Part shown: positions 1,483 to 17,937 of the stretch, piece after piece
Layout: each line of letters opens with the position of its first letter
How positions within the stretch are numbered: position 1 is the first letter of the stretch
NCBI GenBank assembly: GCA_900318395.1
Contig: ONKL01000003.1
Coordinates: forward strand, 7,242 to 71,241
Direction of reading: 5' to 3'
Source of the DNA: an uncultured Prevotella sp.
GTDB taxonomy: Bacteria > Bacteroidota > Bacteroidia > Bacteroidales > Bacteroidaceae
Length of the DNA stretch: 64,000 bases
The notes under the pieces: model-generated
The model's input: only the letters and a program-made list of their open reading frames with translations
The model's database searches: none
Told to the model about the DNA's origin: nothing
Program-made: the position numbers and the translations under genes

Positions 1483-1570
1483 TCAGGTCGGCTACGACTG
1501 CCCGCTTAGTCGGCTACGATCGTCGATCAGCTTCCTGACGATTGACAGTCAGGTCGGCTACGGCTGATTG
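1483..1570. repeat. imperfect 22-bp tandem array, 4 units (core GTCGGCTACG)
   Basis: Units start at 1483, 1505, 1527 and 1549. Confidence 0.8.
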
Positions 1571-1645
1571 TCCACAACCTGAACGCTCGGCTTTATTGCT
1601 TCGCTCGTCGAAGAACATTTGACGAGATTACTGCAACGATGGAGC

Positions 1646-1695
1646 GAGCAGTATTCTCCGACTCAAGGAGCAGTATTCTCGCTTTCAAGAGCAAC
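1646..1695. repeat. 21-22 bp period repeat (GAGCAGTATTCTC)
   Basis: Copies at 1646 and 1668, partial copy at 1689. Confidence 0.7.
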
Positions 1696-1798
1696 TTTTG
1701 ATATTGGAGATACCCACTATTTTGCCGTTTGCTACCGAAGGGTCGCAAGAACGATTGGCAGCCAGATTGTTCGTCCTTAAAGATTTCCTGACATAAAA

Positions 1799-1830
1799 TT
1801 TGGATATTACAAAAATAATATCTAATTTTG
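1799..1830 (+). promoter_or_regulatory. Bacteroidetes promoter for the LRR gene
   Basis: TTTG 1799-1802, 20-nt spacer, TAATTTTG 1823-1830. Confidence 0.75.
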
Positions 1831-1858
1831 CAGAAAATAATCACTTAAACGAATTAAA

Positions 1859-3058
1859 ATGAAGAAAAATAGTTTATTAATAGTGCTTTTGACATCGATG
1901 GCATTTTCATTGCAACTTAAGGCACAGGAAGCGACATCTCTGATGTCGGGTAGCAAAAGGACTTCGCTGGATGCTGAATTAAAAAGGAAAAGCATGAATA
2001 TGGTTGATAATGATAAAGAAATACTTCTTAACTCATCATCACAAACAATGACCATTATATATAAGAATGGCACAAGACAAGAGATTGGAATGAATGAAAT
2101 TGAATCTATCGAATATTCCGACGATTCTAATACAGACATGTTCGCAGCATATCTATCCAAGGCAGGCATGCTCTCAACCGTTTTATTTGAAGCAAAAGCT
2201 AAAAATGTGCTAGAGCTGAAACTCTCTGGACGTATTGACGCTAGGGACTTCGAATACATAAAATGGTGTTGTAGCAGAATTCAGGTCCTTGACCTAAAAG
2301 ATGTGGTAATTGATGCCTATACCGGAGAGGATGGCACCAATGAAGGTACTTACGACACATTTTATGCGAACAAGATACCAACAGGAGCTTTTTACTATTG
2401 GGGTACATCGAAAAAGCACAATTTCACAGGAATTCCAAGGAATGAAGGCATGACATCTTTGAAAAAGATCATATTACCAAATGATCTAGATTCAATCGGC
2501 GAAAAAGCATTTGCAAATATGGCACAGTTGGAAAGCGTAACCATCAGAACGCCTTATCCGCCCAAAGCTCATAAAAATAGTTTTCAGGGATTATCAAGAA
2601 ATGCGAAACTATACGTCCCAAAGGGTACTAAGACCCGTTATCGTTCTGCAGAGGGTTGGGATGAGTTTGTAGAAGTTGTTGAGGTTAATGAAAACGGCAC
2701 TCCTATTATTGCAGACAACCCCCTCATTGGTACATGGAAGGCAACACGAATTGAAGGTTGGGGAGAATCTGTAAGTACAGTAGGATTAGACTACCTGCAA
2801 TTAAAGAATGATGGTACCTACATCCATGTTGAGGAGGAAGATGGCATACCATTTGTAACAAGAGGCACGTGGACCACTTCAGAAGATAAGTTTATACTCC
2901 ACAAAAAAGACGGTGGGCAAGCAGGTTCTTCTTTTGAATATGAAATAATAGAATTGAAAGAAAACAACATGAAAGTGTCTATGTGGCGTGTTATTGCATA
3001 TTTGGAGAAAGTGCAAGATAGCGTCATTAAACAATACCTAAAAAGTGGAAGCAAGTAA
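1859..3058 (+). CDS. secreted BspA/LRR_5-type leucine-rich repeat protein with C-terminal lipocalin-like domain
   Basis: Signal peptide; LKKIILPNDLDSIGEKAF repeat; LYVPKG...Y..AEGW cap; C-terminal LIGTWK...GTW barrel motifs. Confidence 0.8.
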   Translation: MKKNSLLIVLLTSMAFSLQLKAQEATSLMSGSKRTSLDAELKRKSMNMVDNDKEILLNSSSQTMTIIYKNGTRQEIGMNEIESIEYSDDSNTDMFAAYLSKAGMLSTVLFEAKAKNVLELKLSGRIDARDFEYIKWCCSRIQVLDLKDVVIDAYTGEDGTNEGTYDTFYANKIPTGAFYYWGTSKKHNFTGIPRNEGMTSLKKIILPNDLDSIGEKAFANMAQLESVTIRTPYPPKAHKNSFQGLSRNAKLYVPKGTKTRYRSAEGWDEFVEVVEVNENGTPIIADNPLIGTWKATRIEGWGESVSTVGLDYLQLKNDGTYIHVEEEDGIPFVTRGTWTTSEDKFILHKKDGGQAGSSFEYEIIELKENNMKVSMWRVIAYLEKVQDSVIKQYLKSGSK

Positions 3059-3074
3059 TTTTTCTCTGATATTA

Positions 3075-3106
3075 TTTGGTCAAATAAAAAATATATCGTA
3101 TTTTTG
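3075..3106 (+). promoter_or_regulatory. Bacteroidetes promoter for the FHA-kinase operon
   Basis: TTTG 3075-3078, 20-nt spacer, TATTTTTG 3099-3106. Confidence 0.8.
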
Positions 3107-3162
3107 CACCATGTATTAAATATTTGCTAATTATTTAAATAATCTATAAACAATATTACGGC

Positions 3163-3852
3163 ATGAAACAAGATGATACTTTTGTTAAGGGAGGCAATAG
3201 GGGTAATAATCCTTATGCTCGACCTACCGGCAGGTCGTTTGCTTCTAACGCAAACGAAACGTATGTACCTGGTATGCATGACAATGCTCCTGGTGTAGTT
3301 GAAAATAAGTTTGATCAAAAGGACAATTCTCCAGTAGTTGGCTTCTTGTATTCTATTTCGCGTAAGGGAATTGGTGAATACTGGCCACTCCATTTGGGAA
3401 CAAACACAATCGGCCGATCTTCGGATTGTGACATCGTGCTAAAGGAACGCTCTGTTTCGGAGCATCATGCCACAATAAGTATCAAGCAAATGAAGTCAAC
3501 AAAGAAACTGATTGCCAGCATACGCGATGTGGGATCAAAAAATGGAATGTATCTTAACGAAGAGGAGCTTGATTATGACAACCATACGTGTAAGTTGCAC
3601 GACATTATCACCATAGGCACAAGTTACAAGTTGTTACTTATTCTAATTGATGCCGAAGACTATGGCTTGTCAGTAGCTGAAGACTTCGCCGCAATTGAGG
3701 AAGATGACACATTCTTTAGCGACATTTCTGGAGGTGATGATACCCAAGGGCGTTTTAATCCATACAACTCTGACAATAGAAACGTTGATACAGGTACTGT
3801 TGATCTCAATGGTGGTCAGCCAAACAAACCTGGTGGTACTAAATTTATGTAA
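3163..3852 (+). CDS. soluble FHA domain protein
   Basis: FHA motifs TIGR, VSEHHA, D.GSKNG; low-complexity N- and C-terminal tails. Confidence 0.9.
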   Translation: MKQDDTFVKGGNRGNNPYARPTGRSFASNANETYVPGMHDNAPGVVENKFDQKDNSPVVGFLYSISRKGIGEYWPLHLGTNTIGRSSDCDIVLKERSVSEHHATISIKQMKSTKKLIASIRDVGSKNGMYLNEEELDYDNHTCKLHDIITIGTSYKLLLILIDAEDYGLSVAEDFAAIEEDDTFFSDISGGDDTQGRFNPYNSDNRNVDTGTVDLNGGQPNKPGGTKFM

Positions 3853-3854
3853 TA

Positions 3855-5519
3855 ATGTCTTTGATTTTTATCCAAGGAGAGGAAGAAAAGAACCGAAATA
3901 TCCACTATGAAGTAGACCCTAAGCTACCTTCTCTTGGTGAGGGGGGAATGGGCCAAGTACTTCGGGGGGTGATGGTCAATGAAAAAAATGGTGTCAGGCA
4001 GGATGTGGCTATTAAGTTCCTGTTTGAAGATCTTCCCGTGCATGCCATTGAACGTGCAAAACGTGAGGCTTCTATACAGATCCATAATGAAAATCTTGTG
4101 GAGATGTTTGGATTCATTGAAGTGGTTGATGGCAATGGCACGAAAAGATACCATGTGGTTAGTGAGTTGTTACAGGGTGTCATGCTCTTCGACTTACTTA
4201 ATGGTAAAACAACCGACAAATACGGAAACGAGATAGAATTTGCCCAGGAATTATTTCAGCAATACCAAAATGACAAGTTCAGTTTCGCAGTGTTCATTGT
4301 GAAAAATATCTTATCTGGACTGATGGCGCTTCATGATAAGGGATATATTCATAGAGATCTTGATCCAAGCAATATCATGATTACACATGATAAAAAGGTG
4401 AAGATCATCGACTTCGGAATAGCCAAACAGCTGAACTCATTGAATACTCAAGACCAACAGCTTACCAGTACTGGACAGTTCGTAGGAAAGGCCGCCTACG
4501 CAGCCCCAGAATTGGTACTTGGTGATGTGCGCAGCCAAGACAAGTCAACAGACATCTACGCTGTGGGTATTATGCTTTATCAGTTTATCGTGGGCAGTTT
4601 GCCCTTTGAAGGCACTATGGCAGAGCTTATCAAGAAGCAGATTAATGAAAAATTGCCCTTAAAGAATGTGCCCTATAAGGCGATCCGCCGCATTATTGAA
4701 AAAGCTACGGCAAAGAAACAGGCAGACAGATACCAGTCGGCATCGGAAATGCGTGTAGATCTCGAGCACCTCTCCAAACAAGATGCACAGCCTTCAACCA
4801 CATCATTTGACTCATTCCCTGATATTGGTGGTTCAAAAAAGAGAATCGGCATAATTGCAGCTTCAGTAGTTGTACTTCTTGCTGTCATTGGAGGCATTTT
4901 CTTCTCCGTGAACAGCGGACCTTCTGAAGAAGAGCTTGCAAAGGCTCGTAAAGACAGCCTATTCCAAGTACGTAATGGGCAGGTCATTGACTCTCCAGAA
5001 ACAAACATTATTATAGACCCTGAATCTGGAGCAAAAATGACACCAATTAATATGTTGGCTGACAAAGCATTGAAGGCACTTGAAGACAGTGCTAGCATGG
5101 AATCGGGGCTTATGCAATTACGAGAAATTATTGACAAATATAGTAGCTATAAGCACTCAGCCCCTGTGCTGGCTTTAATGGCTGCCATTACACAACCAGA
5201 AGACGCGACTATCGCCCCTGAACGTGTAAAAATGCTAAGACGGTTGACGGCAGATAAAGTTCAACGTAACGCCAGACGTGCTCACGAGTTGGCAGAGATG
5301 GCTGTTAATGCTGATCCCCAATGTTATCAGGCGCTCTTCGAACTTGCCACAGACTACGTGGCAGGAGAGATACGTACAGGATCTCCTTCGACGCCTGCTC
5401 CTAACAAAGCTCTCAAGATGTATAAGGATGGTCTGGCTTATGCCCAGAACAATAATGACAATGACTACATATCATTATTTAATACGCGCATAGAACAAGT
5501 TTCTCAACTATTGCAATAG
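3855..5519 (+). CDS. membrane Hanks-type Ser/Thr kinase with extracytoplasmic helical (TPR/Sel1-like) domain
   Basis: GEGGMGQV, VAIK, HRDLDPSN, DFG, YAAPE, DIYAVG; TM IGIIAASVVVLLAVIGGIFF. Confidence 0.92.
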   Translation: MSLIFIQGEEEKNRNIHYEVDPKLPSLGEGGMGQVLRGVMVNEKNGVRQDVAIKFLFEDLPVHAIERAKREASIQIHNENLVEMFGFIEVVDGNGTKRYHVVSELLQGVMLFDLLNGKTTDKYGNEIEFAQELFQQYQNDKFSFAVFIVKNILSGLMALHDKGYIHRDLDPSNIMITHDKKVKIIDFGIAKQLNSLNTQDQQLTSTGQFVGKAAYAAPELVLGDVRSQDKSTDIYAVGIMLYQFIVGSLPFEGTMAELIKKQINEKLPLKNVPYKAIRRIIEKATAKKQADRYQSASEMRVDLEHLSKQDAQPSTTSFDSFPDIGGSKKRIGIIAASVVVLLAVIGGIFFSVNSGPSEEELAKARKDSLFQVRNGQVIDSPETNIIIDPESGAKMTPINMLADKALKALEDSASMESGLMQLREIIDKYSSYKHSAPVLALMAAITQPEDATIAPERVKMLRRLTADKVQRNARRAHELAEMAVNADPQCYQALFELATDYVAGEIRTGSPSTPAPNKALKMYKDGLAYAQNNNDNDYISLFNTRIEQVSQLLQ

Positions 5520-5525
5520 AACTGT

Positions 5526-6479
5526 ATGGCGGGAAAGGTTACGCAAAAAGGTGATACCATATACCTGAACATCGGACAGAGATGGTTTAAGTATAACGAA
5601 AGATCGTTATTGGGTTCAGGTGCAATGGGTACAGTTTATAAGGGATATGACTGTAACTCTGGTGAACCTGTGGCTATAAAACGCGTAATGGATCGCTATG
5701 CGAACAACCCTGAAATACGTTACAGAGCTCATCAAGAGGCTGACCTGATGTTCCGTCATCCAAATCTGGTGGAGATGCTCGGATGCTGTGAAATAGCCCC
5801 TGACAGGGGACCCATCTTTATTGTAAGTAACTATGTCAATGGAGAGAATATAGACCAATTCATAAACACCCACGTACGAGCTCTCCCAAATGTGGAGAAA
5901 AGAATTTGCGAACTATTTCTCCCTGTGCTAGACGCCTTGTCATACATTCATCAGAAGGGTATCATTCACATGGACATCAAACCCTCGAACATTATGATGG
6001 AACAGGGTAAAAATGTCAGGCTTATGGACTTAGGCATAGCTAATATTAGTGACACTGTGAATACAGCGACCTCTGGCATGATGGGCACTCCAAAATACGC
6101 TGCTCCAGAACAGTTCTCCGATTCTGAGAAGAGGCCCCAATTGACTGCCGCTACAGACATTTACGAGGCAGGGGTCACACTCTATGAACTGATAACTATG
6201 CACAATCCCTTTAACGCATCTACAGTATTGGAAGCGAGGGAGTTGCATCGCGAATTGGTGCTTGAGAAAAAGCCGATGATGTCGGAAGCTGTATATCAAG
6301 TTATACGCAAGGCAACTGCTATTTATCCCTCAGATAGATTTCAGAATGCAGGTCAGATGAAAATGGCGCTAAAGGAAGCATTAGCTGCACCTGAGCCTTC
6401 ATCCAACACATTGTTATATTGGATTATAGGGCTCCTTGGAGCTTTAGCTATCATATTATTGATATTATTTCTCCTATAG
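5526..6479 (+). CDS. tail-anchored Hanks-type Ser/Thr kinase (non-RD)
   Basis: GSGAMGTV, VAIK, HMDIKPSN, DLG, GTPKYAAPE; protein ends in a TM helix. Confidence 0.92.
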   Translation: MAGKVTQKGDTIYLNIGQRWFKYNERSLLGSGAMGTVYKGYDCNSGEPVAIKRVMDRYANNPEIRYRAHQEADLMFRHPNLVEMLGCCEIAPDRGPIFIVSNYVNGENIDQFINTHVRALPNVEKRICELFLPVLDALSYIHQKGIIHMDIKPSNIMMEQGKNVRLMDLGIANISDTVNTATSGMMGTPKYAAPEQFSDSEKRPQLTAATDIYEAGVTLYELITMHNPFNASTVLEARELHRELVLEKKPMMSEAVYQVIRKATAIYPSDRFQNAGQMKMALKEALAAPEPSSNTLLYWIIGLLGALAIILLILFLL

Positions 6480-6482
6480 AAA

Positions 6483-7886
6483 ATGAAACCAATTAATACA
6501 TCATTGCCGATAACAGGTTTCTGGGAATCCAGACAGGGAGGAAGAGACGAGAATCAGGATCAATGTGCCGTCGTTGACACACCACTCGGATTTCTTGCTC
6601 TTGTATGTGACGGAATGGGCGGAGGACCTTCCGGCAGCTTGGCGTCTGACACGGCAGTAAGGAAGATATACGAATACCTCAATGCCCCCCACGAGGACAT
6701 GAATCGGAAGGAGGTCTTAAAAGAAGCCATAGAGTATGCCCATCAATCTATATTAAGTTTGGGTGATGAGAATCCAAGGTTAAGAGGTATGGGAACAACT
6801 GTAGTTGCTATGCTCATTAATGACTATTCAGCCATTATCGCTCATGTCGGAGACAGTCGAGCATATCAATTCCGTTACGGACATAAAATCTTCCGTACTT
6901 CCGACCACTCAATGGTCGCTGAAATGGTTCGTAATGGAGTCCTTACTGAAGAGCAGGCTAGATTATCATCTCAATCGAACATTATTACCAAAGCTCTGGG
7001 TGGTAATTTGAAGGATTTGGCAGAGGTAAGTGAACATGCTTACGAGGCAGGAGATAAGTTCCTTCTCTGTTCTGATGGTATATGGGGAATGGTACCCGAG
7101 AAGGAGCTTATTCGTCTCACAGCAAAGCCGTCAGTTCTATCAAAGGCCGTTGCCAATACCGTAGAAACCATTGAAGGTATAGGCAGGGAAAGCGGAAATA
7201 CGCATGATAATATGACCATCGTCATGCTTGAAATGAAAAAAGACTCTAAACTAAAAGTAAAAATGAGCAAGAAGACTATCAGATTATTAGCTATCATGGC
7301 AGTCGTTTGTCTGCTAAGTATTGTTGCAAATATAATATTAGCAAAAAAATTATCGGCTCCAAATATGGCTGAGCAGAAGGTTGAAGTTCTCACAAAAGAA
7401 TTGTCTGCCAAAAAAAAGCAGATAGAAGACCTTCAGACAGAAGTGAACAAGTTGAACACAGAAGTAGCAAAGTCAAAACGAGAAACTGCTGACGCACAAC
7501 TTGAAGTCGCAGTGGAAAAGAACAAAGCCGCAGAACGCGCTCAGGCTGAAGCAGAGGAAAAGGTCAAGGAAGCGACAAAAGCTTCAGAGAAAGCCAAAGC
7601 TGCCGCCCAGCAGGCACAGAAAACTGCTAATGAGATTGCTGCTCTTCGAAAAAAAATTTTGGATGATTTAAATACAGCTAAAAATACGAAAAAGAAAGAT
7701 GCGCGAAAAGTTATCATAAAAAGAATGGTATCGAACCTAAGCCTTCTTTCAGCCAAAGATACGAAGAACAAAACAGTATATGAAGATATAAAAGATAAGC
7801 TGAGTGCTCCTATATCAACGAGCAATTCTCCCAATGCAATAGGACATTATGATATACTTATAAAAAAATTAAATGCAATTAAATAA
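6483..7886 (+). CDS. PP2C/Stp1-family Ser/Thr phosphatase with TM helix and C-terminal coiled coil
   Basis: RDENQD, CDGMGG, GMGTT, HVGDSR, DHS, LLCSDG, HDN; TM LLAIMAVVCLLSIVANIIL; K/E/A-rich tail. Confidence 0.93.
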   Translation: MKPINTSLPITGFWESRQGGRDENQDQCAVVDTPLGFLALVCDGMGGGPSGSLASDTAVRKIYEYLNAPHEDMNRKEVLKEAIEYAHQSILSLGDENPRLRGMGTTVVAMLINDYSAIIAHVGDSRAYQFRYGHKIFRTSDHSMVAEMVRNGVLTEEQARLSSQSNIITKALGGNLKDLAEVSEHAYEAGDKFLLCSDGIWGMVPEKELIRLTAKPSVLSKAVANTVETIEGIGRESGNTHDNMTIVMLEMKKDSKLKVKMSKKTIRLLAIMAVVCLLSIVANIILAKKLSAPNMAEQKVEVLTKELSAKKKQIEDLQTEVNKLNTEVAKSKRETADAQLEVAVEKNKAAERAQAEAEEKVKEATKASEKAKAAAQQAQKTANEIAALRKKILDDLNTAKNTKKKDARKVIIKRMVSNLSLLSAKDTKNKTVYEDIKDKLSAPISTSNSPNAIGHYDILIKKLNAIK

Positions 7887-7904
7887 ATATAATAACATCT
7901 GCTT

Positions 7905-8582
7905 ATGAAGACTATAACGATTGGACGAGGCGACGGTGCCAATATCATCATCGACAACGAGTTGATCAGTCGTCGTCATGCTATTCTAAAGATTTCCACA
8001 TTTGGAAAGATGGAAATTGTTGATATGGGAAGAAACGGTACGTATGTCAACGGCATAAAACTACGTCCAAATGTTCCTTTCCCTGTTACACGAAAAGATG
8101 TTGTTAAATTTGCCGATCAGGATAGCCCATTTAAACTCGATTGGTCGCTGGTACCAGATAATTCCAGATTCATCAAAATCGCTTTATCTACAATTATTGG
8201 CCTACTGGCAGTAATCCTTTTAGTTTTACTTATAAGAAGCTGTATCAGCGATGAGGATAACTCTGCAGCCCCCACTTTTATTGAGGAAACATCTGCTCAG
8301 TCGCCTTCTGCGAACTCCTCAGAAGCGCCAGCCATCGATTCTGATAAGAAGTCTGGCGTTGCAGAAGAAAGCCGTGAAAGGGAAGCAAAAGAAAATATAA
8401 GAGAAAAGAAAGAAGAGCAGAAGGATATAAACGGAAAGACAGTACAGCAACTTTTCCCCAATCCCCCTGCAAAGAAAGATACAAACTCAAAGAAAAAAGG
8501 GAACGGAGCAGTTCAACCGTCAAAGGTCAAGACTAAGGAAGGTGATAATAACCAAAATAATAATAAAACAGTGATAATGTAA
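7905..8582 (+). CDS. FHA domain membrane protein
   Basis: TIGR, ISRRHA, NGTYVNG; one TM helix; charged low-complexity C-terminus. Confidence 0.9.
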   Translation: MKTITIGRGDGANIIIDNELISRRHAILKISTFGKMEIVDMGRNGTYVNGIKLRPNVPFPVTRKDVVKFADQDSPFKLDWSLVPDNSRFIKIALSTIIGLLAVILLVLLIRSCISDEDNSAAPTFIEETSAQSPSANSSEAPAIDSDKKSGVAEESREREAKENIREKKEEQKDINGKTVQQLFPNPPAKKDTNSKKKGNGAVQPSKVKTKEGDNNQNNNKTVIM

Positions 8583-8602
8583 AACAATAAAACATATATA
8601 TT

Positions 8603-10168
8603 ATGAAACTAATCAGAATTGGAAATTCGCAATCTTGCGACCTAAAATTAGACAGTGAGTATGTAAGTTCCTTGCACGCAGAAATGACTATTTTAGACGA
8701 CGGTCAGATTATACTGGAGGACAAGAACAGTAGGAATGGCACTACAGTTGGTAATAAAAAACTGGAACCTGGGAAAGAGGTTACCGTACAACGTGGTGAC
8801 ATGATCACTTTTGCTGACACTCCGCTGGTATGGGCACGAATCCCAGCTGCAGAAAAACTAGCTAACTACAAAGCCGTTTTTAATATCGGTTCAAATTATC
8901 GTAACGATATTATAATAAACAGCCAGACTGTCAGCCGTTATCATGCATCAGTACGAGTAGGCAAGGATGGAAAGATGTACATCCGTGATAATGGAAGTCG
9001 AAATGGTACAATGGTTAATGGTGTAAAAATAGCTCCCAACAAGGACGAACGTATCAAGAAAGGAGATAATATTGTTTGTGGTGCAGAAGATGTCACTGAT
9101 CAAATATTACCCCTGTTCCCCAAAAATGGCATGAAAAAGATCCTTACAACCGCAATTGGTTTGTTGGCAGCGGCATTAGTTATCTTTGGAATTTATATGC
9201 TATGGCCAAAAGGTGGTAAAAAAACCATTGACCCAACAATTTATCGCCCTGCGGTAGTTTACGTAAGGACTATTTTCCACCCCATCGTTACATTTGACGA
9301 CAACCCGATGTCGGACTCATGGGATGGTGAGGTTCAGTTTAACGATATGCAATTGCAGTCACAAGCGACAGCATTCTTCCTTGACTCTCTTGGACGTATG
9401 GGAACAAACCGTCATGTAGCAATGCCATGGGAGGAATTAACAAAAGATCAGGAGGACCAAATACGTGATTTCATCGAAGACAATCTTCCTAAAGGAAGAA
9501 GCATTGAATCTATAAACGCATTTCTTCAGAATTCAATTTTCGCATCAACCGTCTTGAAGCATGCAATGGCAAGATCTGGTAATAATCAAGATCGTTTTGT
9601 AAATAATGTCCTAAACATTACATCAAGAATTTCGAAGTCAAAGTATACTATCTCTGGTAAAATTGATCATATCACAGTGGGATATCCAGGTAATTACTAT
9701 ACTCATACTGATGAATTCCAGCGTTGCAACGTATTATCTGTATCAAAAGATAAGGATATCGATCTCGCAATTCTCCAGCTCAATAACAAAACTACTCCAA
9801 AGGATATCAAGAATTTGTTTAGCCCAGAAGATTTCTCTACAGAACAATTAGAACCTCTTAAAGATCAGCTTTACACGATAGGCTATCCTGCAGGTCTGAT
9901 TTGGGCTCAAGACAGTAAAACCAAGTCACTCGAGCCAAACATTCGCGAAACAAAATGCAGCAAGCAACCTGGCAGATTTGATTTTGAAATCCAAGCAAGC
10001 TCTGTAGGAGGTAGCAGTGGTTCACCTATTTTCAACGACAAAGGACAAGTAGTAGGAATTCTCTATGGAGGTTATTCTGTTGTCGGCGGTTCAACAAAGG
10101 CTGTACATTCAAAATACCTAAAACAGTTGTACAATGAATATGTAAATGATGTAGTACAATTACAATAA
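8603..10168 (+). CDS. FHA-FHA-TM-trypsin-like serine protease
   Basis: Two FHA domains (VSSLHA/SRNGT and VSRYHA/SRNGT), TM helix, catalytic triad TNRHVA, DLAIL, GGSSGSP. Confidence 0.92.
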   Translation: MKLIRIGNSQSCDLKLDSEYVSSLHAEMTILDDGQIILEDKNSRNGTTVGNKKLEPGKEVTVQRGDMITFADTPLVWARIPAAEKLANYKAVFNIGSNYRNDIIINSQTVSRYHASVRVGKDGKMYIRDNGSRNGTMVNGVKIAPNKDERIKKGDNIVCGAEDVTDQILPLFPKNGMKKILTTAIGLLAAALVIFGIYMLWPKGGKKTIDPTIYRPAVVYVRTIFHPIVTFDDNPMSDSWDGEVQFNDMQLQSQATAFFLDSLGRMGTNRHVAMPWEELTKDQEDQIRDFIEDNLPKGRSIESINAFLQNSIFASTVLKHAMARSGNNQDRFVNNVLNITSRISKSKYTISGKIDHITVGYPGNYYTHTDEFQRCNVLSVSKDKDIDLAILQLNNKTTPKDIKNLFSPEDFSTEQLEPLKDQLYTIGYPAGLIWAQDSKTKSLEPNIRETKCSKQPGRFDFEIQASSVGGSSGSPIFNDKGQVVGILYGGYSVVGGSTKAVHSKYLKQLYNEYVNDVVQLQ

Positions 10169-10170
10169 AC

Positions 10171-11673
10171 ATGTCCAAGAAATTATTATATTTAGTCATA
10201 GTATCTAGGCTGTGCTTACCCCTCATTGGGTATGCACAGACTGCATGTTGGTTGCTAAAACCAATATATCAAAGCATTACTCCTTTTGGTGAATCATACT
10301 ATAAGGTGAACACTTATAGTACTATGGCCATATTTGACACTAATGGCAATAAAATTGTTGAAGCAGATTCCATTACCTATATCACTAATGGATATGCCCT
10401 TGCCCTTACCAATACGAATGGAAAATTCCGACTAAAAGCCATTATTGACAAGTCAGGAAATGTAAAAGATATTTCTGAAGAATACTATGTTGACGACTAT
10501 CATTTCTTCTCAGAAGATATGCTAGGTGTAAGTAATGACAAAGGGAAAAGTGGATACATTAATCCTGATGGAAAACTTGAGATACCTTTTATTTACGTAT
10601 CTGTTCACCCCTTCCGCGAAGGACTTGCATCCGTTTTTAAACCCAAGAAAGGACTCAAAGGGTTAATAAGATCAGTAACTAATAAAAAAGCTCTAGTAGG
10701 CTCTGCAACTTATGTTAATCATAAAGGAGCAGAATTAAATATCCGTGACGGCAAAAACAATCCTACTTTTACAGCCTCTTTCAAAAATGGCAAAGGCTTA
10801 GTACAGATGGAAGACGGCTCTTCTTTTTATGTTGATCCTAAGGGGAATCGTTTAGAAGACGGACCAAATAATAAAGAACTTGGGGTAGATGAATATTTTG
10901 CTTATTCCGAAGAGAACAAAAAACAAGAAGTGAATCTTCCATTTATTCCCTCATATAATGCCGCGTATTCTATATATACAGAAGGCCCTGTAAAGGGATA
11001 TATGGCAAATGGAGTAATGATGATACCAAGTCAATTTCAGGAAGCTTATGGATTTGCTTCTGGTTTTGCTATCGTGAAGAAAGATGGCAAGTATGGAATT
11101 ATCAAACAACTTGGTGGAACAAATTCTGTTAAAGTCAGTGAAAAAGGAGGTAAAATTAGTGTACAAAGTGTTATTCCTGCCGACTGGGGTAATTGTCCTG
11201 CTAAATTTTTATATATCACCAATGGAACAGATCGTCTAAGTTTTGCTATGACTGGTCAGGAAAGTCAGAGAGCCGTAGAAGGAGTTGTCCCTGTTACAAA
11301 TGGAGAAAAGATATATGAATTAGACGTTGACGGATTGATTGTTTGGCGGCAGACAAATGCAAACGCGCAAGCTACAGATGAAACAAAATCATCTGGAGGT
11401 ATTTCGGTCAGTGCCCCTGGTAAAGTCACTGCTAATTCAAAAGGTGAATGTGTTGTTAACGTACGAGTAACAAACCGAAGCGGATCAGCACAGTCCATTT
11501 CGATTAGCTTGAGTACAGGAGGAAACAAATCTGTTAAATTGGCGCCAGGGAAAACTGCTGTAGTTTCAATAACCACAAAGATTGTAAAAGAAACCAGATG
11601 TGTAATCTCTGCAAAAAGTGCAGCTGGTAACGCTTCTGGTGTTACAAATCTTATACCATCATTTGTATTGTAA
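10171..11673 (+). CDS. secreted WG-repeat protein with C-terminal Ig-like domain
   Basis: Signal peptide; GYINPDGK..IPF.Y, FREGLASV, FSEDMLGV, KKDGKYGII repeats. Confidence 0.8.
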   Translation: MSKKLLYLVIVSRLCLPLIGYAQTACWLLKPIYQSITPFGESYYKVNTYSTMAIFDTNGNKIVEADSITYITNGYALALTNTNGKFRLKAIIDKSGNVKDISEEYYVDDYHFFSEDMLGVSNDKGKSGYINPDGKLEIPFIYVSVHPFREGLASVFKPKKGLKGLIRSVTNKKALVGSATYVNHKGAELNIRDGKNNPTFTASFKNGKGLVQMEDGSSFYVDPKGNRLEDGPNNKELGVDEYFAYSEENKKQEVNLPFIPSYNAAYSIYTEGPVKGYMANGVMMIPSQFQEAYGFASGFAIVKKDGKYGIIKQLGGTNSVKVSEKGGKISVQSVIPADWGNCPAKFLYITNGTDRLSFAMTGQESQRAVEGVVPVTNGEKIYELDVDGLIVWRQTNANAQATDETKSSGGISVSAPGKVTANSKGECVVNVRVTNRSGSAQSISISLSTGGNKSVKLAPGKTAVVSITTKIVKETRCVISAKSAAGNASGVTNLIPSFVL

Positions 11674-11684
11674 ATAATCAAAAT

Positions 11685-12704
11685 ATGTTCTATATGAAAC
11701 AGCTATTTTTATTCACCTTATTTTTAGTAGTAACAGGAGAGATTTCTTTTGCTACCAACACTCAAGACAAACTCTATACATTAGACAATAAAATGTATAC
11801 AGGATATATATCAACACAAATACCAGGTGAGCAAATTATTTTTATATGCGACGGACAGGCTATTCCCTTCTCTATTTCTGATTTGCTGATGATTAGGTAT
11901 GAGGCTAATAACCCAGAACTGCTTACAGGACTAAATGACGTCATAAAGACCCGTTCTGGAAATATCTATCAAGGGCAGATTGTCGAACAAGTATTCGGAA
12001 AGACCATTAAAATACATACTTCTGATGGTTTGAGAAATATCGATGTCTCAGATATTTTGGAACAGCAAAAGGTAAAAATGTCAAAAGATTATTCTTTTAT
12101 AGAACAGGCACCATATAAGACTATTGTTAAAACAAAAACGGATGAAGAATATACGGGTGTCATTATTTTCCAATATTATGGCAGGGATGAAGACCCTAGC
12201 TATTTGGAAATCAGTTCAGAAGACGGTATAAGTAAACGAGTATATATCAGAGATATCGAGCAGATGCGTCGCATTCCAAATGAGGCGTATCGTGAAGTCG
12301 AGGCTTTTAGTGTTAAGGATGGTAAGGTTTATTTTAATCAAGTAGAAATAGAGCCGACATCTCTTGCAATGCGCCAGAAAGGCGGACGTTTCATATTCTA
12401 CCTTGAAAATAAAGATATTGCTAATCATACAGTTATAGACAAAGGAACAGGTCAACTTTCAATTCAAATGAAAGAAGATTCTGATTATTCAAAATATAAG
12501 TTGATAAAAATAGAACTTATGAAAATTGGCAAGAATGAGTATTATGCATTCGATAATGATATGGTTTACAAAAATGTTATTGAACCTTATACTAAAACCA
12601 TAGATAATAAAAATGTCATATGTAAGGTTTATAATGTTAAAAATGGAATGTACCTTTTTTATAGACAAGGATCAAATTCTGCCTTTTTTATGGAAATTAA
12701 GTAA
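11685..12704 (+). CDS. secreted hypothetical protein with three short beta-rich repeats
   Basis: Signal peptide; repeats DKLYTLDNKMYTGYI, DVIKTRSGNIYQGQI, TIVKTKTDEEYTGVI. Confidence 0.75.
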   Translation: MFYMKQLFLFTLFLVVTGEISFATNTQDKLYTLDNKMYTGYISTQIPGEQIIFICDGQAIPFSISDLLMIRYEANNPELLTGLNDVIKTRSGNIYQGQIVEQVFGKTIKIHTSDGLRNIDVSDILEQQKVKMSKDYSFIEQAPYKTIVKTKTDEEYTGVIIFQYYGRDEDPSYLEISSEDGISKRVYIRDIEQMRRIPNEAYREVEAFSVKDGKVYFNQVEIEPTSLAMRQKGGRFIFYLENKDIANHTVIDKGTGQLSIQMKEDSDYSKYKLIKIELMKIGKNEYYAFDNDMVYKNVIEPYTKTIDNKNVICKVYNVKNGMYLFYRQGSNSAFFMEIK

Positions 12705-12712
12705 CAAGAAAT

Positions 12713-14479
12713 ATGACAAGGAAAATTCTATTAGTGATATTGCTTTTACCTGTTTTAGGTTTGATGGCTCAGATACCATTCTGGACTATACATCCTGAAT
12801 ATACAAGTATAAAAATAATTGGCAACGGTTTATATGTCGTTTCCCAAAACGGTAAGTATGGAATATTAAACGCTGAAGAACAAATCGTTGTACCTTTGAA
12901 GTACGACAATATATCCGCTTTCAGTTCACATACAGCATTACTATATGAGGGGAACAAGTTCGTAGCCTTTGTCAATGACAGGGGTGAAGTAACTGACGTG
13001 GCAAACAAAGAGTATGTTCCACAAGCGGGATGTCTTTTTGCTGATGGATATCTTCCTGTAAAAAACTCTGACGGCTGTTTTTTCATAAATGCAAAGACAG
13101 GGAAAGCTATAGGGCCGTATTCGGAAGAAAGACCTTTTGTCGAAGGGTACGCAGTAGTAAAAGAGCCAAAGTCATTGAAGCATATATTTGACGGAGCCAC
13201 ACTCTTAAAATGTTTGTCAGCTGAAACAGGAAAACCTATTACAATATCATTCAATAAGTCTGAAGATGATGATCTTGACTTTATTTCAACTGCAAGTAAC
13301 GGAAAATCCATAGTAGTCATTAAGAAAAGAGTTTTTGAGTATGATTATAGAAATGGTGTAATAACTCCATTATCAACAGATGGAACGGAGAATAAAAAGT
13401 CACGTGTATTTGTTACTCAGAGGCCTGTAGTTCCAGTGAAAACAGAGATGGGATATGCGATACATCTTAAACAAGGAAGTTTGGCATTTGATTCTCTAAT
13501 GAGACTTACGGGAATCCAATATAATGGTCAGGAGTTCAAATCATTCGAACCACCAAAGGAGATAATCAAAGAAATTAAAAGCCCATTCAAGTGTCTTTCA
13601 TTCAAAGATACAGATTTGTTAGGACTTTCATATAAAGATAATGATTTCCTGCCTGCTCAATTTGAAGAAATAAAATTGCTTTGGGGAAATGACGCATTAG
13701 TAAAGTCTGATGGAAAATATGGTGTGGTTTCTGTCGACACAAAGAATTCCTACAGATACATGCTTAATGATAATCTTGATATAGGCTTTGAACATAAGGC
13801 GGTAAAAACTAATGTAAAGGTTTTATGTCCTCCGTATATGAAATTACCTCTGATGAGCCTGACAAGCTTTGATGATAATTGTCTAATAAATACAGATACA
13901 CGCAAGGAAACCTCCAATGTTGAATCTGTCGTATTAAGCTATGAATGTACTCTCTCTATTCCAGAGAAAATAGGTCTTGAACGAACACCATGTTTTGCAA
14001 CAATAGGATTAAATTACGATGGTTTAAAATTTGTTCCACGAGAGATCTCATTCAACACCTGGTACATCAATAATTATACTGTAGAATTATCTAAACACCA
14101 AATGGCAAATCAAATACTTGATGTGGATGTATTAGTAAAGAACAGTACAACAAGTGGTCAAGCATTCTTTAAAGATGTTTCAATAGAAGCAGAAGACTCT
14201 GTTTCTTGTTCTATAACTAAAATAACGGAAGAGTTATATAATGCCCGTCTTTCAGGATGGAAGTCCGATAAAGTAAATTTCAATATTGATGTCACAGAGG
14301 ATGGCTGTCCAACAATTACTTATGGATTCAGTTTGGATATTAAATCACATAATGACAAGAAGAACCAACAAGAATCTGTTTCAGTAGAGAAACCAGTATC
14401 TCAAGCAAAAGTAAAACGAGCACCCAAAAAGAATCAAGCAGTTCCGAAAAAAGAAGAAAAGAAAAAATTCGTCTTATAA
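12713..14479 (+). CDS. secreted WG-repeat protein
   Basis: Signal peptide; QNGKYGILN...VVPLKYD, FVEGYAVV, DGKYGVV. Confidence 0.8.
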   Translation: MTRKILLVILLLPVLGLMAQIPFWTIHPEYTSIKIIGNGLYVVSQNGKYGILNAEEQIVVPLKYDNISAFSSHTALLYEGNKFVAFVNDRGEVTDVANKEYVPQAGCLFADGYLPVKNSDGCFFINAKTGKAIGPYSEERPFVEGYAVVKEPKSLKHIFDGATLLKCLSAETGKPITISFNKSEDDDLDFISTASNGKSIVVIKKRVFEYDYRNGVITPLSTDGTENKKSRVFVTQRPVVPVKTEMGYAIHLKQGSLAFDSLMRLTGIQYNGQEFKSFEPPKEIIKEIKSPFKCLSFKDTDLLGLSYKDNDFLPAQFEEIKLLWGNDALVKSDGKYGVVSVDTKNSYRYMLNDNLDIGFEHKAVKTNVKVLCPPYMKLPLMSLTSFDDNCLINTDTRKETSNVESVVLSYECTLSIPEKIGLERTPCFATIGLNYDGLKFVPREISFNTWYINNYTVELSKHQMANQILDVDVLVKNSTTSGQAFFKDVSIEAEDSVSCSITKITEELYNARLSGWKSDKVNFNIDVTEDGCPTITYGFSLDIKSHNDKKNQQESVSVEKPVSQAKVKRAPKKNQAVPKKEEKKKFVL

Positions 14480-14564
14480 GATTACCACGACATCTTTTTA
14501 GCTGGCGCACCCAAAGACTCACTTCGTCAAATATGGGTTTGTCAGTATAGATTGCCTTTTCATT

Positions 14565-14622
14565 GAGCATAATTATGCTCCTGATATTCAGTTTTTCGGC
14601 TGTCGATGACATTTTTATGCAA
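14565..14622. promoter_or_regulatory. candidate ArgR (ARG) boxes
   Basis: Perfect palindrome GAGCATAATTATGCTC (14565-14580) and degenerate ACATTTTTATGCA (~14609-14621) upstream of the argD promoter. Confidence 0.55.
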
Positions 14623-14696: not shown

Positions 14697-15836
14697 ATGA
14701 AACTATTCGACGTATATCCGCTCTTCGACGTGAATATCGTGAAGGGCAAGGGCTGTAAGGTGTGGGACGACAAGGGTCAGGAGTATCTTGACCTCTATGG
14801 CGGACATGCCGTGATCAGCATCGGACACTCGCATCCGCACTATATCGAAAAGGTGACGGAGCAGTTGCAGAAGATTGGATTCTACTCCAACTCAGTGATC
14901 AACAAACTGCAGGTGGAGCTGGCAGAGCGTCTAGGCAAGATCTGCGGCTACGACGACTACCAGTTGTTCCTCATCAACAGCGGTGCCGAGGCCAATGAGA
15001 ATGCGCTGAAGCTGGCCTCGTTTAAGACGGGCAATACACGTGTGCTCAGCTGCGAGAAGGCTTTCCACGGACGCACGAGCCTGGCTGTGGAGGTAACGCA
15101 CAATCCGAAGATTGTTGCCCCCATCAACGACAATCATCACGTACGCTTCCTGCCACTGAACGATCTCGAACCCTGGGTTCGCGAGTTGTCCAAGGGTGGT
15201 GTGGCTGCCGTTATCCTCGAGTGTATCCAGGGTGTGGGTGGCATCCAGATGGCCACGCCTGAGTTTGCTCAGGGTCTGGCCTACGCCTGCAAGCGTTATG
15301 GTGCTGTGTTGATCTGCGACGAGATCCAGTGTGGCTACGGACGAAGTGGTAAGTTCTTCGCTCACCAGTGGTTGGGCATCAAGCCTGACATCATCACAGT
15401 GGCCAAGGGCATCGCCAACGGATTCCCTATGGGCGGCGTACTGATCTCACCTGAGTTTGAGCCTGTCTACGGACAGCTGGGAACCACCTTCGGAGGCAAC
15501 CATCTGGCCTGTGCTGCTGCGCTGGCTGTGCTCGACGTGTTCGAAGAGGAGAATCTGGTGGAGAATGCGCGCGTCATTGGCGACTACCTGATGGAAGGCA
15601 TCAGGAACATCGGCAGCTCACATATTAAAGAGGTGCGTGGTCGTGGACTGATGATCGGCATCGAACTGGATATGCCTCACAAGATGGTACGTAAGCCACT
15701 TATCAAGCATGAGCACTGCTTTACGGGCTGTGCAGGGCAGGACATCCTGCGACTGTTGCCACCTCTGTGCCTGACAAAAGCGGAGGCCGATGACTTCATT
15801 GAGAGACTGATCAGAGTACAACCGGAAGAGGAGTAA
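14697..15836 (+). CDS. argD: acetyl/succinylornithine aminotransferase
   Basis: Class III aminotransferase motifs NSGAEANE, FHGRT, DEIQCGYGRSG, VAKG, TTFGGN; start placed after the promoter. Confidence 0.93.
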   Translation: MKLFDVYPLFDVNIVKGKGCKVWDDKGQEYLDLYGGHAVISIGHSHPHYIEKVTEQLQKIGFYSNSVINKLQVELAERLGKICGYDDYQLFLINSGAEANENALKLASFKTGNTRVLSCEKAFHGRTSLAVEVTHNPKIVAPINDNHHVRFLPLNDLEPWVRELSKGGVAAVILECIQGVGGIQMATPEFAQGLAYACKRYGAVLICDEIQCGYGRSGKFFAHQWLGIKPDIITVAKGIANGFPMGGVLISPEFEPVYGQLGTTFGGNHLACAAALAVLDVFEEENLVENARVIGDYLMEGIRNIGSSHIKEVRGRGLMIGIELDMPHKMVRKPLIKHEHCFTGCAGQDILRLLPPLCLTKAEADDFIERLIRVQPEEE

Positions 15837-15887
15837 GGAGTGAGGAGTGAGAAGTGAGAAGTGAGGAGTGTGGAGTGAAAAGTGATA
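15832..15887 (+). repeat. heptamer simple repeat (GTGAGGA/GTGAGAA)n, about 7 units
   Basis: Fills the argD-proC gap. Confidence 0.85.
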
Positions 15888-15891
15888 AATT

Positions 15892-16671
15892 ATGAAGATA
15901 TCGATTATAGGAGCAGGAGCCATGGGAGGCTCCACAGTCGAAGGACTGATTAAAGGCCATACATTTAAGAATGAGGACATCACGGTGAGCGATCCTTCGC
16001 AGGCTGTGGTGGAGAAATTTGACAAGTTGGGCGTCTGTGTGACGACTGACAACAAACTGGCAGCAGACAGTGCTGACATCGTCTGCGTCGTAGTGAAACC
16101 CTGGCTCGTAGAGCGCGTGCTGAAAGACATCAAGCCAGAGCTCAATCCCCAGAAGCAGATCCTGATTGTGATTGCAGCAGGGGTATCGTCAGCAAGCATT
16201 CAGGAATGGCTGGGCGAGAACTGTCCCCCGCTGTTCTTGGCAATACCCAACATCGCCATTGCCGAGATGGCATCGATGACGTTTATCGTACCCGTCAATG
16301 CCTCGGAGAAGGAGACGCAGACGGTGGTTGGCATCTTTGATGAGATGGGCGACACCCTGATTACAGACGAGCAGCACCTGGCAGCAGGTACCACGCTCGC
16401 CTCGTGTGGTATCGCCTACGCCATGCGCTATATCCGTGCAGCTGCAGAGGGCGGCGTGGAGCTGGGCTTCAAGGCTGATGATGCCAAGAAGATCGTGATG
16501 CAGACCATGAAAGGAGCTGTAGAACTGCTCGAAGCCAGCGGTCTGCACCCAGAGGCTGCCATCGACCTGGTAACAACGCCTGGAGGCGTGACCATCAAGG
16601 GTCTCAACGAGATGGAGCATGCTGGTTTCACCTCGGCCGTCATCCGTGGACTGAAAGCAGGACTGAAATGA
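15892..16671 (+). CDS. proC: pyrroline-5-carboxylate reductase
   Basis: IIGAGAMG, VKP, VTTPGGVTIKG. Confidence 0.95.
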   Translation: MKISIIGAGAMGGSTVEGLIKGHTFKNEDITVSDPSQAVVEKFDKLGVCVTTDNKLAADSADIVCVVVKPWLVERVLKDIKPELNPQKQILIVIAAGVSSASIQEWLGENCPPLFLAIPNIAIAEMASMTFIVPVNASEKETQTVVGIFDEMGDTLITDEQHLAAGTTLASCGIAYAMRYIRAAAEGGVELGFKADDAKKIVMQTMKGAVELLEASGLHPEAAIDLVTTPGGVTIKGLNEMEHAGFTSAVIRGLKAGLK

Positions 16672-17339
16672 GACACATGAGACAAATAATCAATTTTTTG
16701 ACAGAAGAACAAAAGGGACATAAAGGATTCGCTCTTTTTGTTCTTATGTACTTATGTCTAAATACTCTGACTGCATCAGCAGAGGAGACGCCCAATTCCC
16801 GTCAGGCTAAGCGTGTGTTTAATACTGCCTGGAATCACTTCTTCGGCCCTGAAGGCGTCACGTTCCATTATAAGATCGACATCCTGCACCTCTATAAGGA
16901 AGAAGGAACGTCGTGGAACAAAGGCGACAAAGCCAGGTCGGAGTACAAGAATTCAAAGATGTGGAACGACGGCACGACCAAATACATCGTCAGGGAAAAG
17001 AAAGGCTACGTGGAGGTACACGATCCAAAGGTGAACAAGGCTGACGAGAAGCTGCAGATGTTTAAGTTTGACGCCGACAGTTACGAATACCACATCGCTC
17101 AAGACCAAGAGGGACTGAAGGTGACGCTGCTGGCTAAGCCCAAGACGAAGGTGAAGATGAAGAAGATCATCGCCCTGCTCGAGCCTGGCACCTACTATCC
17201 CAAGCGGCTGCGCATCAAGGTGAGCATCTTCTGGTGTACCATCACGTTCTCTAATTTCAAGGCTGGCGGTCTGAGCGACGATGTGTTCGCCTTCCCCAAG
17301 GAGAAATACAAGAGCTATCCGCTTAAGGACCTGAGATAA
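16668..17339 (+). CDS. secreted LolA-like hypothetical protein
   Basis: Signal-like segment ending TASA; WNDGTT and F.FPK..Y......DLR C-terminus resemble Bacteroidetes LolA-like proteins. Confidence 0.6.
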   Translation: MRHMRQIINFLTEEQKGHKGFALFVLMYLCLNTLTASAEETPNSRQAKRVFNTAWNHFFGPEGVTFHYKIDILHLYKEEGTSWNKGDKARSEYKNSKMWNDGTTKYIVREKKGYVEVHDPKVNKADEKLQMFKFDADSYEYHIAQDQEGLKVTLLAKPKTKVKMKKIIALLEPGTYYPKRLRIKVSIFWCTITFSNFKAGGLSDDVFAFPKEKYKSYPLKDLR

Positions 17340-17372
17340 AGTGAAAAGTGAAGAGTGAGAAATGAAAAGTTA
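17340..17372 (+). repeat. heptamer simple repeat (GTGAAAA)n
   Basis: gtgaaaa gtgaaga gtgagaa atgaaaa gt. Confidence 0.75.
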
Positions 17373-17379
17373 ATATAAT

Positions 17380-17937
17380 ATGGACGAACAACTGAAGCAA
17401 ATAGGCGAGCGTCTGCGCGGATTGCGCGACGTGCTCGACATTCCAGTGAGCGAGATGGCAGAAACCATCGGCATCTCATCGGAGAAGTATGAAAAGATTG
17501 AGGCTGGCGAAATGGACATCACCATCTCGAACCTGATGAAGATTGCCAGCAAATACGGTGTATCAACAGAAGAGCTGATCTTTGCTGAAGCCCCCCACAT
17601 GAGATCTTACTATGTGACGCGTAAGGGGCAAGGCATGAGTATTGAGCGCACCAAGGCTTACAAGTACCAGTCGCTGGTAGGCGGATTCGTCAACCACAAG
17701 GCCAATGTGTTTATTGTGACCGTAGAGCCCAAGCCTGATGCTCATACGATCTACAAGAACACCCATCCTGGACAAGAGTTCAATCTTGTGCTTGAGGGTA
17801 AGATGGAGCTCTTCATTGGAGGCAAGACCATCATCCTCGAAGAGGGCGACTCCATCTATTTCGATTCCACCAAGCCCCACGGCATGTTGGCTGTTGGCGA
17901 CAAACCCGTGAAATTCTTAGCATTTACAGTAGAATAA
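17380..17937 (+). CDS. XRE-family HTH plus cupin transcriptional regulator
   Basis: N-terminal IGERLRGLR HTH; cupin H.GQEF...EGDSIYFDS..PH. Confidence 0.92.
   Translation: MDEQLKQIGERLRGLRDVLDIPVSEMAETIGISSEKYEKIEAGEMDITISNLMKIASKYGVSTEELIFAEAPHMRSYYVTRKGQGMSIERTKAYKYQSLVGGFVNHKANVFIVTVEPKPDAHTIYKNTHPGQEFNLVLEGKMELFIGGKTIILEEGDSIYFDSTKPHGMLAVGDKPVKFLAFTVE

Follow-up and report, generated by a model that had tools for sequence, protein, structure and literature searches.

What is the role of an operon that brings together two Hanks-type protein kinases, a PP2C phosphatase, FHA domains and a membrane protease in an uncultured Prevotella sp.? The operon lies in a 64,000-nucleotide stretch of DNA (hereafter the window; assembly GCA_900318395.1, contig ONKL01000003.1, positions 7,242 to 71,241 of the forward strand), to which the coordinates below refer; C66, C67 and C86 are contigs of the source genome (G000), and the G and L numbers denote genomes and loci, respectively. 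We find that the operon is real, conserved and apparently undescribed, and that it appears to be a variant of known phosphothreonine envelope signaling, unusual for its predicted protease output and linked in part to non-canonical type VI secretion system (T6SS) loci. Based on its observed gene content, gene order, conservation, intact catalytic residues, purifying selection and coupling of kinase and WG-repeat genes, we give even chances to the proposal that it is a reversible trans-envelope kinase/phosphatase/FHA alarm, the predicted output of which is a membrane-anchored periplasmic protease.

The nine-gene operon and its products

The nine genes (3163-14479) are co-oriented on the + strand and separated, in order, by gaps of 2, 6, 3, 18, 20, 2, 11 and 8 nucleotides; the open reading frames (ORFs), their order and this spacing bear out an initial annotation, made from the DNA letters, of nine tightly packed genes with 2-20 nucleotide gaps behind one promoter. 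Its count of four FHA domains, two kinases, a PP2C and a trypsin has Pfam support throughout:

3075..3106, + strand: Bacteroidetes-type promoter match at the head of the operon (pattern match)
3163..3852, + strand: FHA1, a soluble FHA protein with low-complexity tails (Pfam FHA)
3855..5519, + strand: KinA, a Hanks kinase with one transmembrane (TM) segment and a helical repeat-like ectodomain (Pfam kinase)
5526..6479, + strand: KinB, a Hanks kinase with a C-terminal tail anchor (Pfam kinase)
6483..7886, + strand: PP2C phosphatase with one TM segment (Pfam PP2C)
7905..8582, + strand: FHA-TM, with an FHA domain, a TM segment and a low-complexity tail (Pfam FHA)
8603..10168, + strand: FHA-FHA-TM-trypsin protease (Pfam, two FHA domains plus trypsin)
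10171..11673, + strand: WG1, with a signal-peptide-like start and WG repeats (Pfam WG)
11685..12704, + strand: secreted 339-aa barrel protein without a known family (no Pfam family; structure prediction)
12713..14479, + strand: WG2, with WG repeats and a Lys/Pro-rich tail (Pfam WG)

The promoter pattern, TTTG-N18-23-TAnnTTTG, occurs 10 times in the window, where 1.07 matches would be expected, and not at all on the + strand within 3107-14479; generic sigma-70 and terminator scans of the window gave chance-level results only. TM segments were called by a simple hydropathy scan, which finds a single hydrophobic segment in each of KinA, KinB, PP2C, FHA-TM and the protease. The two kinases hence remain membrane proteins as first annotated, with the correction that KinB is tail-anchored and has no ectodomain. 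From their sequences, we read the N-terminal catalytic or FHA parts of KinA, PP2C, FHA-TM and the protease as cytoplasmic.

The trypsin of the protease was initially said to have an intact triad, and H271/D387/S472 are indeed invariant in 15/15 aligned homologs. The domain matches DegP/HtrA/Spl structures, no PDZ domain is hit, and the protein ends shortly past the trypsin domain, which is predicted to be periplasmic and of a PDZ-less HtrA/Spl-like type. In KinA the TM segment lies near residues 327-350. The catalytic motif of KinB reads HMD in the window and HRD in 8/11 homologs. PP2C has its TM segment near residues 262-285, followed by a charged helical C-terminal region that is predicted to be periplasmic, and scores 191 bits against the Stp1 model NF033484 (cut-off 230). 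Purifying selection is evident from the ratio of nonsynonymous to synonymous substitution rates (dN/dS), which is below 0.4 throughout. The kinase and protease domains have values of 0.03-0.06 (with dS about 0.2-0.4), and FHA-TM, WG1 and the barrel protein range from 0.07 to 0.38, dS being saturated for the pair G248 versus G206. The catalytic residues are intact.

The FHA domain of FHA1 has G84-R85, S99 and H102, and its tails bear repeated Thr motifs that include T6, T33 and T183 as well as C-terminal ones. The pattern [KGDE]-T-[VIFY]-x, defined post hoc once the alignment had been inspected, has 51 matches in the FHA1 tails of 19 homologs, against 3.5 in shuffles. Because of these repeated Thr motifs FHA1 looks like a multi-site substrate and scaffold. 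FHA-TM has a GR/S/H/N motif in its FHA domain, a TM segment at about residues 87-110 and a tail ending in a hydrophobic tetrapeptide.

Two of the three proteins first annotated as secreted repeat proteins do have WG repeats, whereas the third, the 339-aa protein, has no Pfam family and is predicted to form three tandem Sm/SH3-like barrels plus a C-terminal Ig-like domain (predicted local distance difference test, pLDDT, 84.8), with weak fold matches (best Z 5.9 for a filamin Ig domain and 5.4 for YaeO). The WG2 model combines a propeller-like WG region with Ig-like sandwiches (pLDDT 82.0), low TM-scores indicating general likeness only, and a search of PDB sequences with the WG protein gave a single marginal match. 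WG1 is predicted to be a periplasmic co-receptor; complex predictions for the KinA ectodomain with WG1 scored 0.23 and 0.17 against a mark of 0.32, and were not used either way.

Relatives of the operon and their genomic contexts

Protease matches occur in 11/301 genomes of the family and 1/400 other genomes across the order, and full-length versions in three of 400 genomes across the phylum; phylum matches to the trypsin alone (G526, G354, G374, G398) or the FHA domains alone (G633, G697) were left out of the carrier count. A database search scored 7997 candidates, of which 813 are protease homologs at E<=1e-30, and a metagenome scan was dominated by generic FHA matches, with 6/79 loci examined. 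The order KinB-PP2C-FHA.TM-protease is kept in 15/16 close loci, the barrel protein being present in 15/16 and a WG gene in 14/16, with the misses falling at contig ends; conserved order and patchy presence, which the initial annotation had named as points to check, are thus both borne out.

Longer versions of the operon add a second PP2C, extra KinA copies, an FHA-TM-TM protein, BACON proteins, an outer-membrane barrel (10 homologs), a lipoprotein (10 homologs) and C10/M6 peptidases. The genomes G105 and G972, as well as three from a distant family, have a reduced core of FHA2-TM-trypsin, Zn-ribbon FHA, PP2C and TM kinases. The kinase ectodomains of these distant versions vary (Sel1, Lcl_C, RHS), and the stretch retrieved from G630 contains at least eight kinase ORFs; the varied ectodomains in the three distant-family genomes (Sel1, Lcl_C) and the many kinases of G630 fit a role of the kinases as receptors. 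The reduced modules at L175 (G972) and L021 (G105) have a TM kinase of about 1260 aa, with RHS repeats in the G972 ectodomain. A second cluster in the source genome (C86:61385-70066) codes for a PP2C, a Zn-ribbon FHA protein, a 1101-aa Zn-ribbon protein and a 1043-aa multi-TM kinase, which has repeated Thr motifs N-terminally.

The WG genes prove to be tied to kinase genes, in support of the initial interpretation: WG2 homologs occur at 22 loci in a 400-genome sample of the genus, and lie directly 3' of a Hanks kinase gene in 18/20 assessable loci. Furthermore, G221 lacks KinA1 along with WG1, the barrel protein and the lipoprotein, and L069 lacks KinA2 along with WG2, co-losses that fit a kinase-WG pairing. 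A PP2C-WG1 fusion in L190, a single case and possibly an assembly artefact, hints that WG1 may pair with the phosphatase instead. At 9/22 loci WG2 ends a TssG-K-E-F run, and TssC is present in three of the four such genomes tested. A first tree had put the window WG2 in a T6SS-only clade; this was overturned by a larger tree, where its nearest relatives are an orphan preceding a T6SS locus (L182) and stand-alone kinase clusters. One stand-alone cluster (L183, L184, L186) consists of a TM kinase, BACON, a multi-Zn-ribbon protein, a kinase, FHA-TM, PP2C-TM, a small lipoprotein, a kinase, a barrel protein (in L183), a kinase and WG2.

In G221, G248 and G206 the operon continues into TssH, B, C, Hcp, VgrG, a PAAR-toxin and TssG, K, E and F, after which come a peptidoglycan-binding TM protein and a second FHA/kinase/WG set; in the metagenome locus L069 it runs into TssH-B-C, where the locus ends. 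The T6SS-like loci thus embedded in the kinase operon (L035-L038, L061 and L062 from G221, G248 and G206, and L069) have PAAR-toxin and immunity-like genes. No RING-TM protein, TssN or TssR was detected in G221, G248 and G206. TssC occurs in 18/301 genomes of the family, in three score classes; the class of G221, G248 and G206 comprises eight loci, seven of them with kinases (the locus in G123 is cut). T6SS-like loci of G142, G184 and G204 end in kinase-WG-PP2C, and these genomes, as well as G036, also carry E1, E2, ubiquitin-like and RING-TM genes. TssN (PF17555) was undetected in 9/9 and TssR (PF20782) in 4/4 non-canonical genomes, highly divergent homologs being possible, with G100 positive; the genome-wide search was for these two families. 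In the kinase-bearing class (L018, L038, L069, G142, G184, G036, G123, G204) TssB starts with MA(K/R)KTVI, or its visible start does; the KTVI resembles the Thr motif of FHA1 and other classes start differently, a weak lead from one lineage.

Among 22 protease carriers, 16 have no TssC, three have it unlinked (G000, G740, G100) and three have it fused to the operon (G221, G248, G206), so that homologous clusters are not always attached to a secretion system. In a tree of 19 rows built from three genes the fused loci form one clade (ultrafast bootstrap, UFboot, 100) nested among stand-alone loci, and the clade of the window is stand-alone; since the outgroups also lack TssC, the fusion appears to have been derived once. 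Unlinked co-occurrence of protease and TssC stands at 2/8 versus 13/290 (Fisher p 0.056), a comparison in which kin are not independent. The system had been called self-contained; it does stand alone in the window, yet this wording goes too far, given the one clade in which it is fused to a T6SS-like locus and the kinase-WG-PP2C sub-modules that turn up in further loci of this kind. Likewise, the initial statement that no T6SS or division genes are present stands for the annotated immediate flanks of the operon, where none were identified, whereas contig C66 of the same genome has a T6SS-like locus. This locus (C66:1390-28519) codes for TssH, B, C, three Hcp, VgrG and TssG, K, E and F, along with ThiF/E1, E2-like and RING-like multi-TM proteins and a small ubiquitin-like candidate; neither TssN nor a kinase was detected in it, its type is shared with G266, G040, G006 and G740, and a second VgrG set lies on C66 at 36682-44057.

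Known systems, a proposed switch and competing readings

Several known systems resemble parts of the operon. The mycobacterial PknA/PknB/PstP/FhaA/FhaB set, with GarA/OdhI, combines two kinases, a membrane PP2C, a soluble FHA protein with a Thr tail and an FHA-TM protein, all of which have counterparts in the operon; the operon differs in having no PASTA domains or RodA/PbpA genes, in its arg flanks and in its patchy presence on an insert instead of the core genome. Scores against the respective models lie far below cut-off (156 and 188 versus 450 for PASTA kinase NF033483, at most 70.5 versus 125 for FhaB NF049868), and with 28.9 versus 200 for GarA/OdhI NF041660 the Thr-tail likeness is a resemblance only. 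TerY-P triads unite a vWA protein with PP2C and a kinase; the ten proteins searched have no vWA match in Pfam. In Rv1747-PknF a tandem-FHA ABC transporter is under the control of its cognate kinase, and the likeness lies in tandem FHA domains ahead of a membrane effector (a match to PDB 6cah); L158 has such a transporter, whereas the effector of the operon is instead a predicted periplasmic trypsin-like protease. To HtrA/DegP the likeness is that of the trypsin domain, which is without PDZ.

The T6SS threonine phosphorylation pathway (TagQRST-PpkA/TagE-PppA/TagG-Fha1/TagH; Pseudomonas, Serratia, Agrobacterium) was reviewed in 2026, the parts of that review available to us listing TagE for Proteobacteria only (PMC13584744). 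The operon shares with it an FHA reader, periplasmic partner genes and, as judged from predicted topology, a membrane Hanks kinase with a periplasmic domain plus PP2C, and some of its relatives are located in T6SS loci. It differs by the TM segment of its PP2C and by its two kinases, the pathway has no counterpart to the tandem-FHA membrane protease or the WG/Sm-barrel proteins, and the related T6SS loci are of Bacteroidota type. The TagH/Fha1 model TIGR03354 scores 49.4 bits against a cut-off of 120.25, over the FHA part only, and none of the TagQ/R/S/T families was found among the ten proteins (Pfam, NCBIfam). T6SS core genes are absent from the locus of the window operon and present in G221, G248, G206 and L069. 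The KKP (PfkA-PfkB-PfpC) prophage module, so far as its description was available, likewise unites two Hanks kinases, PP2C and FHA, but in the order PP2C-kinase-kinase rather than kinase-kinase-PP2C, and with kinases fused to a cold-shock domain or FHA, neither of which Pfam finds in KinA or KinB (PMC11341870). With the Bacteroidales T6SS-iii of types GA1-3 the T6SS-fused relatives share TssB, C, D, E, F, G, H, I and K (PMC4714493, PMC8102008, PMC10781749, seen in part). According to the parts seen of PMC10781749, all 443 systems have some of the membrane complex, with tssN systematically between tssK and tssG; in the fused relatives, unlike those systems, tssG and tssK are adjacent and TssN and TssR undetected.

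The word "kinase" is absent from the main texts of these three papers, and the parts seen of PMC7159879, PMC11341870, PMC13584744, PMC8102008, PMC4714493, PMC10781749 and bioRxiv 10.64898/2026.10.19.760177 do not describe the operon. Searches of the open-licence literature found no description of it, which agrees with the initial statement that no characterized Bacteroidales equivalent is known, and no paper on Ser/Thr kinase signaling in gut Bacteroidales; supplementary tables (KKP, GA1-3, TssNQOPR) may list some of the loci.

We posit the following chain of events. A disturbance of the envelope would be sensed by the secreted WG proteins together with the Sm/SH3-barrel protein, and these would in turn act on the ectodomain of KinA in the way that TagQ/TagR act on PpkA; in longer versions the outer-membrane barrel and lipoprotein would join in the sensing. 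KinA, with tail-anchored KinB, would then phosphorylate the repeated Thr motifs of the FHA1 tails; once phosphorylated at several sites, FHA1 would tie FHA-TM and the tandem-FHA protease together in a patch of membrane, this clustering would activate the PDZ-less trypsin domains against periplasmic targets, and the membrane PP2C would reset the switch. Elsewhere the same signaling parts are linked to other outputs, be it a T6SS-like machine in which TssN/TssR are undetected or an ABC transporter with tandem FHA domains.

Several observations weigh against this alarm with a protease output. The catalytic loop of KinA reads HRDLD plus GK instead of the usual HRDLK plus GT, and D170 (usually Lys in Hanks kinases) and K212 (usually Thr) are invariant in 18/18 homologs; these swaps may leave KinA with changed or low activity. 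In the window protease, both FHA domains lack the Arg of the GR motif (N8, S97) while retaining S, H and N, and because this first canonical Arg is absent phosphothreonine-driven protease clustering is not assured. The GR Arg is present in 8/15 first and 1/15 second protease FHA domains and in 9/19 FHA1 domains, and an Arg directly follows the Ser of the second protease FHA domain in 14/15 homologs; phosphothreonine reading may thus be weak, or proceed via the latter Arg. The predicted topology depends on the simple hydropathy scan. With no dN/dS above 1 and no effector-immunity pair within the window, the signature of an arms race is weak. The window WG2 comes after the barrel protein rather than a kinase, and P. 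ne3005 (L022) lacks WG2 there. Furthermore, L187 and L190 have the arrangement FHA-KinA-KinB-PP2C-WG1-KinA-WG2 with no FHA-protease in the stretch retrieved, and similar neighborhoods contain tandem-FHA ABC transporters, in L158 by Pfam and in L071 by length and TM pattern only; the protease is therefore, on this evidence from sequence, not the sole output, and L187/L190 and L158 point to exchangeable outputs. LytTR and FHA genes come next after the variant in L187 and L190.

A wider version of the proposal, which we hold to be unlikely, would see in the operon one of a family of plug-in receptor-kinase modules of gut Bacteroidales. As proposed, the module is eukaryote-like, with a WG co-receptor, a membrane kinase, PP2C and a multivalent FHA scaffold; in one lineage it would replace TssNQOPR to anchor and fire the T6SS, and in the stand-alone form it would be the corresponding sensor of attack, answering puncture of the envelope by throwing an inside-out protease switch via phosphorylation-driven clustering. 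No such switch, from cytoplasmic phosphorylation to a periplasmic protease, was found in the open-licence literature.

Three other explanations compete with the alarm reading. The operon could be the firing control, and perhaps the envelope anchor, of a non-canonical Bacteroidales T6SS, in the manner of TagQRST-PpkA-PppA-Fha1, its stand-alone copies, that of the window among them, acting in trans on an unlinked T6SS or being left-overs, which we consider rather improbable. It accords with this explanation that the operon is fused to TssH-B-C-Hcp-VgrG-TssG-K-E-F in three genomes and to TssH-B-C in L069, that the three genomes have a second kinase module behind the baseplate genes, that kinases accompany all but the cut locus of that TssC class, that WG2 ends the TssG-K-E-F run at 9/22 loci, that no match to TssN or TssR passes the cut-off in these genomes (G100 serving as the positive control), that a T6SS-like locus lies unlinked in the source genome and in P. 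ne3005, and that TssB of the kinase-bearing class, in one lineage, begins with KTVI like the FHA1 tails. Against it stand the 16 carriers without TssC, several of which are 95-99% complete, the single fused clade among stand-alone loci with outgroups lacking TssC, the unlinked co-occurrence of 2/8 versus 13/290 (kin not being independent), the occurrence of the T6SS class of the source genome in G266, G040 and G006, where the protease has no match, and the overturned placement of the window WG2 among T6SS-locus proteins.

Still less probable, in our judgment, is that the operon organizes how a structure of the surface or envelope (barrel, lipoprotein, WG and Sm-barrel proteins) is assembled or matured, with the protease as processing enzyme, phosphorylation marking the site and no part in conflict. 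The outer-membrane barrel, lipoprotein, BACON proteins and C10/M6 peptidases of the longer versions would suit it, as would the purifying selection throughout; the clade of the window, however, lacks the barrel and lipoprotein, and presence is patchy and on an insert. A polar Lys/Pro-rich linker with a hydrophobic tetrapeptide is found at the C-termini of FHA-TM (ending at 8582; 9/17 homologs) and WG2 (ending at 14479; 7/11 homologs), against a background of 5/491 signal-peptide-like proteins of the source genome, and these tails are possible docking peptides, as this explanation would have it; a stricter re-test gave 7/22 in further WG2 homologs, which counts against it. The least probable of the alternatives is anti-phage defense, wherein phage contact or injection would trigger the kinases and lead to growth arrest or receptor clipping, as in KKP or other kinase defenses. 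Patchy presence on a low-GC insert adjoining a BT4734-like mobile element, the two kinases, PP2C and FHA that partly recall KKP (PMC11341870, seen in part) and PADLOC domain matches would fit, but the KKP order, cold-shock domain and kinase-FHA fusion are all absent, the PADLOC matches are to generic kinase, PP2C and trypsin domains only, and the neighborhoods retrieved hold mostly housekeeping or T6SS genes (from partial annotation, with no defense-island test). The protease is unmatched in 50,697 phage records, and nothing in these results points specifically to phage, one of the cues initially suggested; a plasmid collection gave one protease match, amid housekeeping-type genes.

The insert, its surroundings and the meaning of the operon

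The operon sits in an insert whose remaining features are:

1495..14594, no strand: low-GC insert between argC (upstream, contig C67) and argD
1799..1830, + strand: Bacteroidetes-type promoter match before the LRR gene (pattern match)
1859..3058, + strand: leucine-rich repeat (LRR) gene with a signal-peptide-like start, BspA-type LRR and a lipocalin-like domain (Pfam)

GC content is 38.9% over 1859-14479 versus 52.3% over 15000-27000. In 4/7 relatives examined argC and argD are adjacent; the interval is an insertion hot spot, with differing inserts in G705 and G713 and none in G703, G702, G716 and G710. The LRR gene, first listed as a member of the system, has its own promoter and a homolog in 0/11 related loci with at least 1 kb of upstream DNA, and is a passenger outside the conserved unit; its LRR_5 match scores 27.0 bits, slightly below the Pfam cut-off of 27.7, and a contig of an RNA run starts at 1844, near the promoter match, as a weak hint. 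A 13-kb contig of one DNA run contains the operon, and the BT4734-like element, a gene set that intervenes between argC and the operon, is uncovered in that run; the two are therefore probably separate insertions.

Near-identical DNA turns up in 16 studies, in runs from rumen and gut. In four rumen RNA runs the contigs extend over 26-28/30 bins and some span gene junctions, with DNA carry-over possible and contigs not equivalent to single transcripts; a silent-stretch control for the RNA runs failed, the strain of the DNA run matched to X16 being without the BT4734-like region. A single, low-depth joint (X12, side 32) that would bypass most of the operon was judged unreliable. Elsewhere in the window, an intergenic element of 50-60 nucleotides at 15824-15890 (argD/proC) is repeated on at least six further contigs of the source genome and also occurs in G715; a short element at 1193-1277, upstream of minus-strand BT4734-associated genes and with a promoter match at 1227-1258, recurs in several genomes of the genus; and about 44000-60000 is a second lower-GC stretch (42-45%).

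The reviewed Bacteroidales T6SS architectures, in the parts of those sources available, list no kinase control. If the proposed reading is true, the operon would be a compact module in which cytoplasmic phosphorylation governs a periplasmic protease, and it would direct attention to the Prevotella-type T6SS-like loci without a detectable membrane complex, which have kinase or ubiquitin-like modules instead.

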